A stretch of DNA of 64,000 nucleotides from a virus. Taxonomy: Duplodnaviria; Caudoviricetes. Location: the IMG/VR virus record IMGVR_UViG_3300007513_000003. One strand, given 5' to 3'. The notes beneath the pieces were generated by a model, which was not told the DNA's origin, did not search any database, and saw only the letters and a program-made list of their open reading frames with translations. The position numbers and the translations under genes are program-made. Position 1 is the stretch's first letter. Every line of letters starts with the position of its first letter. Shown one piece after another: positions 4,930-11,765 of this stretch.

Positions 4930-5769
4930 ATGAGTAGTTTATTAGAACAATATTATCGCCAACCTGAGATTTATATCTCATTACCTAACGAAGGTAAATT
5001 TTATCCTGCAGGATCTATAGAAATTTCCGAATCCGGCGAGATTCCTGTTTTTGCTATGACAGCCAAGGATGACATTGTACTTAAAACGCCTGATGCTTTG
5101 ATATCAGGTGAAGCAATTGCACAAGTTATAAAAAGTTGTGTTCCTGCTATTAAAGATCCATGGCAAGTACCTGCTACTGATATTGATTTCATTTTAGTAG
5201 CAATTCGAATTGCGTCTTATGGTAATGACATGGAATTGAATTTTTCATGTCCTAAATGTGAAGAAAAATTTGATTATCAAATAGGTTTAGAATATTATAT
5301 TAATAAACTAGGTGATATATCCTTTGAACCTGAACAAATCTTAATTCCTTATGGCCAAGTTAAAATACATATTAAACCATTAAATTATTTGGATTTGTCG
5401 TTAATTCAAAGACGCACATTCGAAGAACAACGTGCAATTGAGGCAGTGGGTTCAATGGAGGAAAAAACAGAAGAAGAAAAGCAAGAAATGTATAATGAAA
5501 TACTAAATACAATGACCGATATAAACATCAACGCTATTTCTTCAGGTGTTAAAGCAATTGAACTTCCAGATGGCACTATGGTTGATGATCAAGAAGAAAT
5601 TATTAATTTTGTTAATAATTCTAGTGTAAGATTATTCAAAAAAATTACAGGCGCTATTCAAGAAATTAAAGACAAAACAGTATTAGACCCTATTGATGTA
5701 AAATGCCCTGAATGTTCCCATGAGTTTACTAGTCCTATAATTTTTGATTACGCAAATTTTTTCGCCTAA
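4930..5769 (+). CDS. gp26: T4 gp26-like baseplate hub / tail assembly chaperone
   Basis: N-terminal PEIYISLPNEGKFYP, FAMTAKDDIVLKTPDALISGEA and DIDFILVAIRIASYG. Two CPxC motifs (CPKC, CPEC). Ends in NFFA. Confidence 0.75.
   Translation: MSSLLEQYYRQPEIYISLPNEGKFYPAGSIEISESGEIPVFAMTAKDDIVLKTPDALISGEAIAQVIKSCVPAIKDPWQVPATDIDFILVAIRIASYGNDMELNFSCPKCEEKFDYQIGLEYYINKLGDISFEPEQILIPYGQVKIHIKPLNYLDLSLIQRRTFEEQRAIEAVGSMEEKTEEEKQEMYNEILNTMTDININAISSGVKAIELPDGTMVDDQEEIINFVNNSSVRLFKKITGAIQEIKDKTVLDPIDVKCPECSHEFTSPIIFDYANFFA
5754..5763 (+). other. Candidate -1 ribosomal frameshift site: overlapping A AAT TTT and T TTT TTC heptamers in the gp26 frame
   Basis: Both heptamers fit X XXY YYZ in the zero frame, one to two codons before the gp26 stop. 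The -1 frame is open from 5748 to 5993. Confidence 0.65.
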
Positions 5770-7073: not shown

Positions 7074-7145
7074 GATTACTTAGAGTGGGTTACGCTTTGG
7101 CGTTTTAAGGAAGTTCCTGAGGATCTAAAGAAGTTAACGCCTTAA
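7074..7145 (+). pseudogene. Start-less inverted remnant homologous to the last 24 codons of the 6310-6879 gene
   Basis: DYLEWVTLWRFKEVPEDLKKLTP* versus EYLEWVTLWRFDEVPEEFKKYVE*. 46 of 60 nt are identical over the first 20 codons, and the stop codon is at the same position. An in-frame TGA lies at 7059. Confidence 0.75.
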
Positions 7146-7791
7146 AACTTCTTATTTTACTGTCGCGTTTACATAACTTAATATACATTTCAACATCGTC
7201 GCTCCATTCCATACCAGTCCACCATTCGAATCCAGGAAATTGGGATTTGTAAATACTGCTCTGTTCATATCCCGGGCCAGTGTATAGATACTTGTATCCG
7301 TTATGTTTTGCCCACCATATTTCATGCTCTAAACTAATAGTACCTAAATGTAAATCAGGATTATGGTAATTCCAAATAAAGAAATGTGTTTCTACATCAT
7401 TACTGTAATTGAGTAACTTTGTAATAGCAACTATTTTTCCGTTATCTTTATAAAGAATATATTTGAATCGATCACAGTCCTCGTCTATAGAATATAAATC
7501 TTTATAATTATTTCTTTGCAGATATGCGTTTAGAATTTTTTTAATTACTTTCGGTTTTTTATCGACAATTTTCCATTCTAAATCTATCGAATTATAATTG
7601 GTTTTTTCTAGACAGATTCGAGTATTACGTGACATGAACCAATGCTCTTTTCCATTTTCAATATAAAGAGAAAATCCGTCTTGTAACGCCTGACTCTCCT
7701 CCCATAGCTCGACATTATCAAGGAATATATTGTTTATTATTACATCACGAGTTTCTTGTTTACCGAAGTAAGTTGATATTTTTATTTGCAT
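7105..7791 (-). CDS. Aminoacyl-tRNA--protein transferase-like (ATE1/Bpt C-terminal domain)
   Basis: WNYHNPDLHLGTISLEHEIWWAKHNGYKYLYTGPGYEQSSIYKSQF matches the ATE/Bpt pattern Y-D-P-x4-S-L-G-x5-E-I-x2-A-x3-G-x2-Y-x-Y-L-G-x8-YK. ATG 7791 is preferred over the track's GTG 7812. Confidence 0.65.
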   Translation of the reverse strand: MQIKISTYFGKQETRDVIINNIFLDNVELWEESQALQDGFSLYIENGKEHWFMSRNTRICLEKTNYNSIDLEWKIVDKKPKVIKKILNAYLQRNNYKDLYSIDEDCDRFKYILYKDNGKIVAITKLLNYSNDVETHFFIWNYHNPDLHLGTISLEHEIWWAKHNGYKYLYTGPGYEQSSIYKSQFPGFEWWTGMEWSDDVEMYIKLCKRDSKIRSFKALTSLDPQELP

Positions 7792-7812
7792 TATGAGATG
7801 AACTACGTTCAT

Positions 7813-8231
7813 CTAGTTCTTCGCTTTCGCTCGAACTAGGTATAATTTGAAAAGTCTTTTTTATATTTAACATTGTTATTTTTATTTAATTTTTTCCTGA
7901 AGTTTTGCTCACACTCCACCCGACTGGGTGAAGTGTGGATTTGACTTTTTCCTTCGGTCTTGTCCTATAAACTGTTGTGGATTATCTAACGACGTGGAAG
8001 CGGTTGTCCTGTACTCCCTACCACAGTCTCCTGGCTATCACGCCAACAAACGGTATCTACTAAATGCTACAGTTTCAACAAATAATAGACGCGAGGTTCT
8101 TACCCTCGTCTTTTTAGCCCATGCTATAGTGGTTTGTATCATCTCCGGAATCTCAATGTGCCTTTGCTACACCGTCAAGGAGAGCGGGTCTTAGCCGCAT
8201 TGTGGATATTATGTGTGCCTGTGTGTTGCCT
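7813..8231 (-). ncRNA. Candidate structured non-coding RNA, family not recognised
   Basis: 7901-8230 is about 47% GC by hand count (154/330), far above other intergenic gaps here. It carries several hairpins: a 12-bp stem at 7910-7937, a stem at 8088-8110, a stem at 8184-8198 and a GAAA-loop hairpin at 7813-7839. The strand is inferred from the flanking genes. Confidence 0.45.
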
Positions 8232-8765
8232 TTAATTTTTAGATGATAGTCTTGATTTATATGTGGTTGGGTTACTTGAGAATGTTTTAACACGGTCAGC
8301 ATTTTTGCTCCAAAACATATCATAGTCGCAAAAAATCCAACCTTTGTAATTAATGTGCCTGTCAAATTTAAATGGTGGGTATTTGTTTTCAATTGCTACG
8401 TATTTGCCTTTTCTATTGATTTTTATTATTAGTATGTTAAAGTCGTTTTCGTCTGCAGGTTCTAATAATTGCTCTATCCATTGATCTAACTTATTCACAT
8501 CCTGTGAAAATAAATGATGGAATGGAAAGTCGCCGTATGCCTTACACTCAATATTAAGTAAAGGGAAACTTGGACCTGGTACTATATCTCCCTTGAAAGA
8601 TCTTATTTGTCCTTCATGAAGATATTCCTTTCTCGCTTTATTAGACCCCCCAATATAGGAACCACTGTGCGGAACACGAATAAACGTTTCGCCGTATATT
8701 TCGGTTAAATGTTTAGCAACATCGCGCTCCCACGTGGAGCCTTTTATTTTCTGCTTGCTAGGCAT
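8232..8765 (-). CDS. Holliday junction resolvase-like PD-(D/E)xK nuclease
   Basis: N-terminal KQKIKGSTWERDVAKHL, then R-V-P-H-S-G, GDI and IECK. Confidence 0.75.
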   Translation of the reverse strand: MPSKQKIKGSTWERDVAKHLTEIYGETFIRVPHSGSYIGGSNKARKEYLHEGQIRSFKGDIVPGPSFPLLNIECKAYGDFPFHHLFSQDVNKLDQWIEQLLEPADENDFNILIIKINRKGKYVAIENKYPPFKFDRHINYKGWIFCDYDMFWSKNADRVKTFSSNPTTYKSRLSSKN

Positions 8766-8768
8766 TAA

Positions 8769-8948
8769 TTACATTGCGTTCTTTTTGTCTTGAATCTCTG
8801 CCCTGCGTGATTTGGCTAATTTGCCAATTTCGCCTAACGCTTTACGAGCGCGAGCGGCCGCCGCTTTTACGCCTTTATCTTCGAACTTTGAAGATTCGCT
8901 GACATATGTTTCGACTCGCTCTAAGATTTGCTCATGAATTGTTGACAT
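8769..8948 (-). CDS. Histone H1-like Hc1-family small basic protein (59 aa)
   Basis: Not in the ORF track. MSTIHEQILERVETYVSESSKFEDKGVKAAAARARKALGEIGKLAKSRRAEIQDKKNAM*. SD GGAG and an upstream GTAAATA. The K-G-x-K-A-A-x-x-R-A-R-K motif is typical of Hc1-like proteins. Confidence 0.75.
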   Translation of the reverse strand: MSTIHEQILERVETYVSESSKFEDKGVKAAAARARKALGEIGKLAKSRRAEIQDKKNAM

Positions 8949-8977: not shown

Positions 8978-10738
8978 TTACATGATTTCTATATCGTCAC
9001 TATAATTTGTGAAACCATTTTCCTTTGTAACTGTGAGGACGCTATGTACACGCCCGACCAGTTCGTCCTTATGAGAGATAAGAAACACACTTTTGCCTCT
9101 ATCTCTACAAAACTTCTTGAGTATACTTATACTACCTTCTAAACCTAGTGCATCCATGCCACTATCTACTAATTCGTCAATAACTAGTAGGCTTATGTTA
9201 TCATATAAGTGTTCCCAGACATCCCTGAACGCCCAAGATAGACTTAAAATAAGTCTATTTCGTTCGCCTCTGCTGAGATTATCAAAGTCTAGATCACGCC
9301 CATACTCTGTAATTTCGACGCTTAAATCGTTTAAAAACATTACAGTATGAGGCAATCCAATTTTATCTAGATAGTAACTCAGTCTCTTATTTAAGAAGGC
9401 TAAGTTTTGATCTATAATTCTTTTGCGTATAAATGAATCCTTATTAACAAGCAATCTTGTTAAAAACTCTTGGTGTTCTTTAAGAGACACTAGATCATTT
9501 AATTTATCATAATTAATCTCTTGCAAAACAGAATTTTGTAAATCCTCAATTTGGGATTCGTAAGGATCATCCTCGTCTGCTTTCTCTACTAAAGTATTAC
9601 GCAAATGTTCTAAACTACTATCATGCTTATAAGCACTAGCAATATCCTCGTAGAAAGTATCAGCGATAGTATCAATATCGCCAATGTCTTCTATCTTTTT
9701 GTTTATAGTTGCTAAGTTACCTTCTTCGCTTTTGATAGATTCTTTATGTTCATTTATTTGTTCTTCCAAATCTGCAAGCATTTTTTGATGTATTTCATCA
9801 TGCAACGCCTGCCCGCAAGTATGGCATTTTTTATCTTCTGTCTTGGATATATTACTTTCAAAACGTGCTAACTCTTTGTTATATTTGGATAATAAGTTTT
9901 CAGAGGTGGATTTTTCTCTATTGTAGCCACGTAATTTAGACTCTAACTGCTCTACATTTGATTTTTTAGTGTGTAGTGCTATTTCCTCTTCGATATTAAC
10001 TGATTCAAGTTCCTTAACAGCGTTGTCTAGTTTTTCAACATCTTTGTTGCGAGATTTTACCCACGCTTTTTGTTTCATACGCAAACTTTTAATAGTATTT
10101 TCAATATTCTCGTTTGCTTGCTGTTTACCCTTAATTGCGTATTCTTCTTCAGTAATAAAATCTTTAGTCTGCTTTACGATCTCTTTAAGTCTTTCTGCTT
10201 TTTCGGATAGTAATGTAATACCAAGTAACTGCTCAATAACTTCACGCTGATCCGAAACACGCATAGCAAGAAACGGTTCAGTATATGTGTTAAGTGCCAC
10301 AACGTGCTTAAACATTGTATGCGACATACCAATTGCTTTCTCTATTGCTTCTTGCGTTTCTTTATTCTCGCCTTGTGCTAAGTTGTCGTCGTCATCATTC
10401 GTATAATATTTTAACACGCCTGGCTTTCTACCACGCTCAATACGATGACGCATACCATCTTTTTCAAACTCAATAGTGACTAACATACCTTTGGCATTTG
10501 TTTTGTTTATCAAATTATCTTTGCGAATATTAGTTAGTGCTTGCCCATACAGCACATAACTCAAAGCATTTACAATAGTAGTTTTACCCGTGCCATTACG
10601 AGCACCTGCGTCATCACCACCCAAGTCTAAGTTTTCACCCAAAACAAGTGTGAGGTCTTGTCTGTCCAAAGCAACCGCTTGAGTTTGGTTACCCACACTC
10701 ATAAAATTCTTTACTGTTAGGGAAGTCAGTTTTAACAC
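8978..10738 (-). CDS. gp46: Recombination endonuclease ATPase subunit (gp46/SbcC/Rad50)
   Basis: Walker A NGTGKTT, coiled coil with a CHTC zinc hook, signature LSRGE, Walker B LLVIDE, H-loop ISH. Confidence 0.95.
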   Translation of the reverse strand: MLKLTSLTVKNFMSVGNQTQAVALDRQDLTLVLGENLDLGGDDAGARNGTGKTTIVNALSYVLYGQALTNIRKDNLINKTNAKGMLVTIEFEKDGMRHRIERGRKPGVLKYYTNDDDDNLAQGENKETQEAIEKAIGMSHTMFKHVVALNTYTEPFLAMRVSDQREVIEQLLGITLLSEKAERLKEIVKQTKDFITEEEYAIKGKQQANENIENTIKSLRMKQKAWVKSRNKDVEKLDNAVKELESVNIEEEIALHTKKSNVEQLESKLRGYNREKSTSENLLSKYNKELARFESNISKTEDKKCHTCGQALHDEIHQKMLADLEEQINEHKESIKSEEGNLATINKKIEDIGDIDTIADTFYEDIASAYKHDSSLEHLRNTLVEKADEDDPYESQIEDLQNSVLQEINYDKLNDLVSLKEHQEFLTRLLVNKDSFIRKRIIDQNLAFLNKRLSYYLDKIGLPHTVMFLNDLSVEITEYGRDLDFDNLSRGERNRLILSLSWAFRDVWEHLYDNISLLVIDELVDSGMDALGLEGSISILKKFCRDRGKSVFLISHKDELVGRVHSVLTVTKENGFTNYSDDIEIM

Positions 10739-10739
10739 A

Positions 10740-11765
10740 CTAAATGTTCCTATAAATTTCTAACAACGTTTGTGGATTATAATATTCGCTTTCAATGTTT
10801 GATAATTGATCAATAACAATAGAGTCAATACTATCAAAGTTAAGTTCAATATCCTCGTCAATAATATCAAGGTCCTGCTTCTCTTTGTTTGGCAATAAAC
10901 TTAACTCACGAACATTGTGATCTCTAGTAAATGTTTCTTTAATAAAGTTTGCCTCTTCATAACTAATATCAATGTCCATTGTTACTCTTGCGTATGTTTT
11001 ATTGTCTAAATACTGTGTGGGATTTTCCAACAGTTGCGATAGTTTTAATGTTTTATATGAAGGAGCATTGGGCCAACTTACAAACTCTGGTTCACCATTC
11101 CATTCTAACATCATCATACCACGCTCATCGTCCCAAGCATCAGCATAGTTGTGTGGAAAGCAGTTACCAATGTAAATTACGTTCTTTTGTTGTTGCCTCT
11201 TATGGAAGTGTCCACTAAACACATACTCTGCTTGCGACATGTCGTCAGCATAAAGTTCGCCATGGTCTGGCATTTGTACCATAGCGTTCATATAAAAGTG
11301 TGGCAGTTCAAAGTGTCCAAAGATATATTTTGCTTTAAGTTTTTTAATTTTCTTAAAGTCATCGCCCACTAACCACGGAACAATAGCAACATTGCCCTCG
11401 TTAATTGTTTGATTTACGATGGAAATTCCAGGAAATCTACTAGCAAATTCAACACTGTTTAGATCACGACGATCTCTGTAGTACAGATCATGATTGCCTG
11501 TAATAAAATAAAACTTCTCAAAAGACTTGCCTAACTTTTCCAAACTACGTAGGCTATAGTTTAACGTATGGACGTTAATACTTGCTCGTTGATGATGCCA
11601 ATCGCCTAAGAATAGGCAAGTCTCGCAGTCGTTCTTATGCGCCGTGTCTATAAACCAGTCAACAAAATCCTCACAATCTTGATTGTGTATAGTTGAATTG
11701 CTTTTATTTCCGAAGTGTATATCTGTACAAACTGCTACTTTTTTAAATAGATTTTCGTTACTCAT
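10740..11765 (-). CDS. gp47: Recombination endonuclease nuclease subunit (gp47/SbcD/Mre11)
   Basis: Metallophosphoesterase motifs DIH, GDWHH, GNHD, GHFE and GHFH; adjacent to gp46. Confidence 0.95.
   Translation of the reverse strand: MSNENLFKKVAVCTDIHFGNKSNSTIHNQDCEDFVDWFIDTAHKNDCETCLFLGDWHHQRASINVHTLNYSLRSLEKLGKSFEKFYFITGNHDLYYRDRRDLNSVEFASRFPGISIVNQTINEGNVAIVPWLVGDDFKKIKKLKAKYIFGHFELPHFYMNAMVQMPDHGELYADDMSQAEYVFSGHFHKRQQQKNVIYIGNCFPHNYADAWDDERGMMMLEWNGEPEFVSWPNAPSYKTLKLSQLLENPTQYLDNKTYARVTMDIDISYEEANFIKETFTRDHNVRELSLLPNKEKQDLDIIDEDIELNFDSIDSIVIDQLSNIESEYYNPQTLLEIYRNI

Follow-up and report, generated by a model that had tools for sequence, protein, structure and literature searches.

Genomic Context and Non-coding Status

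The window analysed here is the whole 64,000 nucleotide (nt) stretch from the IMG/VR virus record IMGVR_UViG_3300007513_000003. The record (124 kb, 35% complete by CheckV estimate) belongs to an uncultured marine T4-like jumbo phage. A gap between a PDDEXK_15 nuclease gene and an ATE_C-like gene encodes a real structured non-coding RNA of ~400 nt (7796-8198, minus strand), which is the subject of this analysis. The genes around it are as follows.

10740-11765, minus strand: gp47 (protein family search)
8978-10738, minus strand: gp46 (protein family search)
8769-8948, minus strand: histone-H1-like Hc1 gene (59 amino acids; PF07432, E = 1.5e-11), between gp46 and the nuclease gene
8232-8765, minus strand: PDDEXK_15 nuclease gene (PHROG "RusA-like resolvase"), the upstream neighbour in the nuclease/resolvase slot, outside the RNA
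7105-7791, minus strand: ATE_C-like gene (Pfam ATE_C, E = 2e-5), directly after the gap
4930-5769, strand opposite to the RNA: baseplate-hub gene

The RNA begins ~35 nt past the PDDEXK_15 stop codon. The order of the slot (gp47-gp46, small nuclease/resolvase, RNA, baseplate hub) is matched in relatives and in the cultured phage ph0011 discussed below. The nearest cultured phages by gp46 are Sinorhizobium phage Phosso, Pseudomonas phage PA5oct (47.8% identity) and Agrobacterium phage Atu_ph07 (44-49% identity for the three), and the Rak2-like phages are the next closest cultured group. Hc1 is a chlamydial histone-H1-like DNA-condensing protein and is unusual in a phage.

The first-pass annotation of this DNA, made from the sequence alone, had described a GC-rich non-coding gap without a credible open reading frame (ORF), and both descriptions stand. 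The only ORF in the gap of more than 60 amino acids (7928-8194, plus strand, 88 amino acids, GTG start) is unmatched in Pfam and PHROG. The GC content of 7901-8230 is 46.7%, versus 35.2% for the window and 11.8% for 7840-7890. The five stems named by that annotation are all present on the minus strand (marked in the feature list below). Its boundary at 7813 was misplaced, as the non-coding stretch actually extends to 7796. The minus strand folds with z = −3.3 (0/100 shuffles as good) and the plus strand with z = −0.6.

Relatives and Covariation

Relatives were first fetched via the nuclease gene, and the gap in these is 82% and 69% identical at the nucleotide level. More distant relatives were fetched via the near-invariant word GGTAGGGNGTACAGGNNAACCGC. 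Covariance model R1 describes the 3′ domain, with the window in its seed, and R3 is R1 rebuilt on its own hits. Model R2 describes the terminal twin hairpins and was seeded from other clades only, with the window clade excluded. The window scores 124.8 bits with R1 (on 7899-8032) and 106.5 bits with R3. R2 finds the window twin hairpins at 7788-7839 (43.6 bits, E = 5.5e−7), and this is the sole R2 copy in the 124 kb record.

The 3′ domain was found by covariance model in 38 distinct relatives. In these sequences 89.5% of the cells are paired, versus 70.7% when shuffled and 42-53% when the partners are slid. Compensatory changes on both sides occur in 20/28 pairs, with 202 both-side-change cells observed versus 65 in the shuffled alignments, and the covariation score (0.50 vs. 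0.17) was reached by 0/500 shuffles. The covariation among relatives that the first-pass annotation had proposed looking for is therefore present. At several pairs many of the sequences have G-U or U-G, and the pair at columns 22/35 is U-G in 38/38. Since G-U pairs found in many or all of the sequences work on the minus strand only, the constraint acts on that strand as RNA. These strand-specific G-U pairs and the other covariation back the proposal of a structured RNA, as do GNRA loops, GA/GAA internal loops and the presence of the RNA in metatranscriptome contigs (see below).

The same annotation had offered a structured DNA site as an alternative. We find it scarcely credible that the gap is a packaging signal, cruciform or recombination site, or else an unrecognised small protein gene. 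Local hairpins can form in DNA too, and the 88 amino acid plus-strand ORF exists, but the G-U pairs are strand specific, the helices span up to 300 nt, and only the minus strand folds better than its shuffles. The ORF matches no family and is interrupted in relatives by non-triplet indels (its region has indels of 2, 4, 6, and 11 nt). A pure DNA site is thus unlikely; an RNA-primed origin is kept as a rival and is weighed below.

The RNA is common among the relatives of the locus. In IMG/VR, 583 candidate stretches encode a relative of the neighbouring nuclease, and the RNA is present in about half of the 80 loci examined. Among 74 further PDDEXK loci, R1 matches 36 and R2 matches 39, and in all loci except L110 (loci are given by L numbers) the matches sit just downstream of the nuclease gene on its strand. 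Searches by primary sequence recovered little. A blastn of the window RNA and of the divergent relatives L021, L118, and L067 against 50,697 phage records gave no match, and nhmmer recovered L013-L015 only. A profile scan of genome contigs with the nuclease alignment returned one contig of a metagenome-assembled genome and no bacterial carrier.

Anatomy of the RNA

A folded core makes up ~310 nt of the RNA, and an AU-rich linker leads from it to two terminal hairpins. Its parts are listed from 5′ to 3′, and "named" marks the stems of the first-pass annotation.

8184-8198, minus strand: P1, first hairpin GCGG CUAAGAC CCGC, likely the RNA 5′ end; stem GCGG/CCGC (named)
8142-8183, minus strand: 5′ junction domain with P2, a conserved UUGA(C) and the inner hairpin P2a
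8179-8183 with 8142-8146, minus strand: helix P2, UCUCC with GGAGA, with variants in 15 relatives
8154-8174, minus strand: hairpin P2a, GGUGU/ACAUU versus CACGU/ACGUG in relatives
8054-8125, minus strand: central region with a small hairpin, the conserved AAAAAGAC, the CGAGG/CCUCG hairpin and a long hairpin
8116-8125, minus strand: small hairpin AGC-AUGG-GCU
8092-8108, minus strand: stem CGAGG/CCUCG (named)
8054-8090, minus strand: long central hairpin
7899-8053, minus strand: conserved 3′ domain, the Pa, Pb, Pc, and Pe region (models R1/R3)
8043-8053, minus strand: CCGUUUG motif
8021-8028 with a strand near 7975-7983, minus strand: helix Pa, GACUGUGG with CCACA of AAUCCACA
7996-8018, minus strand: Pb, near-invariant hairpin GGGAG UAC AGG ACAA CCG CUUCC; stem GGGAG/CUUCC (named)
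7984-7993, minus strand: hairpin Pc
7943-7953, minus strand: box 1 (AGGAAAAAG), single-stranded, 5′ of Pe
7910-7937, minus strand: Pe, 12 bp hairpin CACACUUCACCC AGUC GGGUGGAGUGUG, then GUGUGA; stem CACACUUCACCC/GGGUGGAGUGUG (named)
7888-7898, minus strand: box 2 (AGGAAAAAA), single-stranded, on the other side of Pe
7840-7887, minus strand: AU-rich linker, ~12% GC
7813-7839, minus strand: H1 terminal hairpin (stem, GA, GC-GAAA-GC, GAA, stem); stem CUAGUUC..GC-GAAA-GC..GAACUAG (named)
7796-7814, minus strand: H2 terminal hairpin AGAUGAAC GUA GUUCAUCU, with an AGAU..AUCU stem

The helices of the 5′ and central domains vary in matched fashion between relatives; support for the 5′ domain is given as paired variants and not as a formal pair count. 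P1 shows a GC to AU compensatory change and occurs in at least 10 different fully paired versions. The P2 variants in the 15 relatives are CUCC/GGAG, CGCC/GGCG, CACC/GGUG, CACU/AGUG, and CCCA/UGGG. The central hairpins covary (alignment pairs 164-199, with many both-side changes), and the central GAGG/CCUC helix is replaced by GUGG/CCAC, GCGG/CCGC, or GAAGG/CCUUC in relatives. In the 3′ domain Pa occurs as GUGG/CCAC, GAGG/CCUC, AAGG/CCUU, GGGG/CCCC, UGGG/CCCA, GAAG/CUUC, and GAAC/GUUC. In Pe (helix 7) 98.3% of the cells are paired and 5/8 pairs have both-side changes. The ends of the core can also be joined. A helix is possible between UCAGG, the 5′ flank of box 2, and CUUGA in the 5′ domain (8176-8180), and the long-range pairs 57-61 with 357-361 change from U-A to C-G in some relatives, with one mismatch in L032.

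The twin hairpins belong to the RNA because they lie 3′ of it on the same strand in 39 further loci. The linker is long in the window clade, but R1 and R2 matches lie only 23-54 nt apart in most relatives, which makes the long AT-rich tract a peculiarity of the window clade.

Several resemblances to known motifs were considered and rejected. Some relatives have "UGAUGAG..CGAAA" in H1, as in a hammerhead core, but these bases covary in a plain stem and the window does not have the core. H1 is not a K-turn, as its outer stem is entirely Watson-Crick. The string GGTTCGAAT in clade B, which is similar to a tRNA T-arm, is unconserved in other clades. Strings similar to RNase P CR-I/CR-IV are likewise unconserved and have no Rfam match.

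Twin Boxes

The two boxes on either side of Pe carry the identical word AGGAAAAA in the window RNA (7946-7953 and 7891-7898). Box 1 and box 2 likewise match each other in most of the 38 RNAs, and at least 14 variants of the word occur across RNAs. These include GGAAAAAG, AAUCAAG, AGAUGAU, GGAUGAU, AGAUGAA, AGAUAAAG, AGCUGAA, GAAUGAU, CAUCGUCAAG, and AGGAAAUAGUUAA. Close pairs of relatives differ by a matched change in both boxes: A to G in L064/L062, L067/L100, and L128/L015, and AAUCAAG to GAUCAA in L021/L029. All four paralogues in ph0011 share the box CGUCAA.

A second word is also repeated in the window RNA. AAUCCACA occurs at 7976-7983, in the 3′ strand of Pa, and at 7934-7941, in the 5′ foot of Pe. 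By sequence, these repeats and the boxes suggest an imperfect internal duplication of ~22 nt flanking Pe.

Relation to the Polynucleobacter-1 Motif and Other RNAs

The first-pass annotation had matched the gap to no classical RNA family, and this agrees with our searches. ARAGORN finds nothing in the window. The Rfam search that it proposed was run with Rfam 15, and no window match reached the gathering score. Family models gave no match in the window to tRNA, tmRNA, RNase P, SRP RNA, group I/II introns, known ribozymes, or riboswitches. At E ≤ 10 the region 7600-8450 has only two chance-level matches (mir-460 and a snoRNA).

Known relatives exist nonetheless, through the Polynucleobacter-1 motif (RF01718). 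This motif was described from 16 examples, none in an isolated phage, and was listed as possibly cis-regulatory (Weinberg et al., 2010, Genome Biol 11:R31, PMC2864571). The neighbouring gene reported for it is GOS11034, similar to PSSM2_218 (PMC2864571) and presumably of the PDDEXK_15 family. None of the later papers searched mentions the motif. RF01718 does not match the window at its gathering score (37 bits), nor 7600-8450 at E ≤ 10. It does match nine relatives at 87-120 bits (L014, L067, L113, L087, L100, L082, L126, L119, and L121). In these nine loci RF01718 covers the first ~135 nt after the PDDEXK_15 gene and is followed by a 3′ domain of the window type and by twin hairpins. All RF01718 matches here start right after homologues of the window's PDDEXK_15 gene.

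The window retains the last RF01718 hairpin and the UUGAC that follows, and the L014 alignment shows UAAGACCCGCU...UUGACGG as in the window. The closing hairpin with UUUGAC reads GCGG-CUAAGAC-CCGC...CCUUGACGG in the window and CAGC-UUGUAAGACCC-GCUG UUUGACGG in L014, where the hairpin is aligned to RF01718 model positions 108-141. The window is without the upstream partner strand of the RF01718 closing helix. The likeness to RF01718 lies in the 3′-terminal hairpin, the downstream continuation in nine relatives and, presumably, the locus and its neighbouring gene, whereas the window RNA does not have the well-conserved first ~100 nt of the motif. The RF01718 model is 141 nt long. The RNA described here is 310-450 nt, its 3′ domain, twin boxes, and terminal hairpins lie outside any Rfam model, and it has relatives in cultured Rak2-like phages. 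Judged by these alignments, the window RNA is a 5′-reduced member of a large T4-like jumbo-phage RNA family that is catalogued only as the 141 nt Polynucleobacter-1 fragment. The word "novel" in the first-pass annotation holds in part: no Rfam model picks up the window RNA, yet RF01718 makes up the 5′ third of some of its homologues.

The RNA family is modular, with alternative 5′ and 3′ domains. The 5′ domain occurs as the RF01718 type or as a UUGAG junction type, the latter in the window. The 3′ domain occurs as the R1 type or as a second type (L017, L105, L107, L120, L122, and L092).

Other large phage RNAs can be compared with this family. GOLLD and ROOL are large, multi-helix non-coding RNAs that are associated with phages and prophages, conserved by covariation and of unexplained function. 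The present RNA is also large, multi-helix, phage-carried, and conserved by covariation. It has no Rfam match to either, however, and it is smaller, occupies a fixed genomic slot and has twin boxes. The hosts of GOLLD/ROOL are Gram-positive prophages, whereas the carriers here are aquatic and enterobacterial jumbo myoviruses. Thousands of short candidates of 29-151 nt were listed in a 2023 survey of IMG/VR, and fragments of the present RNA may be among them.

Neighbouring Genes and Transcription

The gene upstream of the RNA varies. It encodes PDDEXK_15, a SegE-like GIY-YIG nuclease, or an endonuclease VII on the opposite strand. Near-identical RNAs can follow different genes, as with PDDEXK_15 in L025 (8920-9465, plus strand) versus the SegE-like GIY-YIG nuclease in L029 (2056-2493, minus strand) and L035 (4338-4775, plus strand). 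L031 has an upstream ORF of the same size (146 amino acids), a candidate for the same nuclease. The upstream nucleases look like non-orthologous replacements in a "resolvase slot." The PDDEXK homologues L010-L012 have no RNA beside them. Downstream, only the window clade has the ATE_C-like gene; the RNA at other loci is followed by the convergent baseplate hub. Judged from gene content across these loci, the RNA element is independent of the neighbouring genes.

These observations bear on two further explanations. One is that the RNA is a partner of the nuclease, i.e., a guide, a cofactor, an antitoxin-like inhibitor, or a conserved target beside a selfish nuclease gene. Most loci do have a small nuclease gene directly upstream on the strand of the RNA, and a gene of presumably the same family was reported beside the motif (PMC2864571). 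We consider this very improbable, as the nuclease family differs even among near-identical RNAs (L025 vs. L029, L035, and probably L031), the ph0011 nuclease is on the opposite strand, the ph0011 copy at ~61 kb is flanked by hypothetical-protein genes only, and L010-L012 carry the nuclease and not the RNA.

The other is that the element acts in cis, as a 3′-untranslated-region stabiliser, terminator, or insulator of the early operon, or as a leader for the ATE_C-like gene. The RNA ends a co-directional operon, contigs bridge the PDDEXK gene and the RNA, and H2 stops 5 nt short of the ATE_C-like start codon; the listing of Polynucleobacter-1 as possibly cis-regulatory also fits (PMC2864571). 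However, the ATE_C-like gene is restricted to the window clade and the next gene is convergent elsewhere, the gene preceding the RNA in ph0011 is on the other strand, and extra ph0011 copies lie in unrelated gaps. There is no U-tract after H2, a terminator scan places no terminator there, and a conserved multi-helix fold of ~300 nt far exceeds the needs of termination. A cis-acting role is therefore improbable.

The start of the ATE_C-like gene touches the RNA directly. An ATG at 7812 lies inside the conserved hairpin H2 and is TTG in relatives, and the ATG at 7791 (ATGCAA) is conserved. From this comparison the gene most likely starts at 7791 and not at 7812. No Shine-Dalgarno sequence is visible, and since H2 ends 5 nt before the start codon, translation of the ATE_C-like gene may depend on H2.

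RNA-library contigs from three studies cover 7968-8121 or 7969-8744, and two are continuous with the nuclease gene. The metatranscriptome consists of contigs only, 7738-7937 is uncovered in all four runs, and the shared end near 7955-7969 is not evidence of an RNA end. The contigs are weak support for transcription because they show neither strand nor ends, and DNA carry-over is possible.

Repeats occur in the DNA between the nuclease gene and the RNA. In L015 (3540-4000) ~450 nt of AT-rich DNA hold ~15 copies of AGGC(T/A) in an iteron-like array, and in the window (8215-8231), as in other clades, one to three AGGC(T/A) words likewise precede the RNA. In L013 (3540-3575) direct repeats of AACCGCAACTCTT (~2.5 copies) come right after the nuclease stop codon and before the RNA. 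A dedicated promoter box upstream of the RNA, AGGCWA-N11-TAnnnT, was rejected, with 28 sites in the window versus 30 expected.

Cultured Carriers

R3 matches the E. coli phage ph0011 (Asteriusvirus) in the same slot, between endonuclease VII and a baseplate protein. The match includes CCGUUG, the Pa/Pb core, hairpin Pe, twin boxes CGUCAAG, and an H1-like hairpin. The ph0011 genome has four matches, at ~61, 116, 199, and 315 kb, and at least two of these copies lie behind TGnTATAAT extended −10 elements. A blastn with the ph0011 copy, the only one of all blastn queries to recover cultured relatives, found the RNA at four or five places per genome in 73 cultured Rak2-like phages. Their hosts are Escherichia, Klebsiella, Salmonella, Cronobacter, Erwinia, Pectobacterium, Serratia, Yersinia, and Xanthomonas, and the carriers from E. 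coli include ph0011, 121Q, and PBECO4.

Some of these RNAs have been annotated as genes. The ph0011 coding sequence vBEcoMphAPEC6_01640, a "hypothetical protein" (L146, 8128-8418; OP557969.1, 198818-199108), overlaps the R3 match at 8208-8396 and is probably a mis-annotation of the RNA homologue. In other records up to four "hypothetical proteins" are annotated under the same RNA element.

The cultured phages closest by gp46 are less clear. R1 and R3 have no significant match in PA5oct, Phosso, Atu_ph07, or SCTP-2. The equivalent gap holds twin-hairpin look-alikes in PA5oct as well as Phosso, and R2 scores that of PA5oct at E = 0.39 only. In PA5oct the look-alike (L037, 8113-8177, minus strand) adjoins four annotated ORFs of 38-50 amino acids on both strands, between the RusA-like gene and the baseplate hub (L037, 7055-7867; PA5oct 75704-76516). 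These four small ORFs may be spurious calls on a non-coding transcript. RNA-seq of PA5oct found four non-coding RNAs (ncRNAs), of which two were highly abundant (Lood et al., 2020, PMC7318152), and none of the four sits in the gp46-to-baseplate-hub slot. ncRNA001 and ncRNA004 (L154, PA5oct 8100-8650; L157, PA5oct 245950-246900) share the 12-mer AAGGAUGAUGCU and have family-like strings (ACCGCUCCGUUGUG; GAGAU-UGUAC...AACCGC...AUCUC), and an H1-like hairpin ends ncRNA004. They may be distant relatives of the RNA family that the models do not detect. They share a word and strings with it, but neither R1 nor R3 matches PA5oct significantly.

Possible Function

The reading that we tentatively favour, somewhat short of calling it probable, is a stable RNA that acts in free form, its core serving as a scaffold to present the twin boxes to a lineage-specific reader. 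The RNA would be transcribed as the tail of the gp47-gp46-Hc1-PDDEXK unit, or else start from its own weak promoter, with the twin hairpins as its protected 3′ end. The folded core would hold out the two identical single-stranded boxes, one on each side of Pe, to be bound by one reader with two sites or by two copies of a reader. Such a reader would be a complementary nucleic acid or a protein peculiar to the phage lineage, since the boxes vary between phages yet agree within each RNA and between all paralogues in a genome.

Several points weigh against a scaffold of this kind. No complement of the boxes was found within 22 RNAs or in the partial genomes L016 (60 kb) and L119 (12 kb), a search that is inconclusive. 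The likeness of the two short, purine-rich boxes could stem partly from the ~22 nt internal duplication and not from a shared reader. The metatranscriptome contigs give no strand, ends, or abundance. The position in a replication/recombination module and the dispersed copies in Rak2-like phages fit an origin equally well. Finally, the functional assignment is drawn from sequence comparison.

The main rival is an RNA-primed replication origin, which is possible but on balance unlikely. The folded transcript would stay hybridised to the AT-rich DNA downstream and be processed into a leading-strand primer, as in ColE1 RNA II and the T4 oriF/oriG R-loops, and the twin boxes or terminal hairpins would load replication proteins. 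The RNA lies in the replication/recombination module (gp47, gp46, and the resolvase slot) and borders oppositely transcribed late genes, and beyond the folded core the window has a 12% GC tract. The four ph0011 copies are dispersed over the genome, at least two behind an extended −10 element, an arrangement reminiscent of T4, which has several promoter-driven origins. In Phosso an RNase HI gene adjoins the equivalent non-coding gap. The likeness to ColE1 RNA II and the T4 oriF/oriG transcripts is one of setting, with AT-rich DNA after the transcript and replication functions around it, and none of sequence or structure was seen. However, most relatives have an AT-rich linker of just 23-54 nt with conserved twin hairpins after it, so the element reads as one RNA. 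The GNRA loops, GA/GAA loops, and long-range helices indicate a compact tertiary fold, which an R-loop does not need, and there are no iterons common to the RNA family. The ColE1 RNA II primer, for its part, needs a defined fold.

The scaffold that presents twin boxes can also be stated more broadly. We regard it as rather unlikely, and offer as speculation, that these RNAs are a new functional class in which the core positions two fast-evolving "address" words, recognised through base pairing or by a phage protein that co-evolves with them. Reading of the words would organise replication starts in the jumbo phage or capture a host or phage partner early in infection, and Polynucleobacter-1 would be an optional 5′ module.

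Significance

Large conserved RNAs of unexplained function are rare, and to our knowledge all those solved so far have revealed new biochemistry. The Polynucleobacter-1 motif, unexplained since 2010, is here extended from 141 nt to an RNA of 300-450 nt, most of which is uncatalogued. The twin boxes, which mutate in step, are a concrete and mutable handle on its function. Copies occur in cultured jumbo phages of E. coli, Klebsiella, Salmonella, Cronobacter, Erwinia, and Pectobacterium, some of them annotated as hypothetical proteins. Because homologues occur in cultured jumbo phages, the function of the RNA is open to bench testing and the annotations can be corrected.
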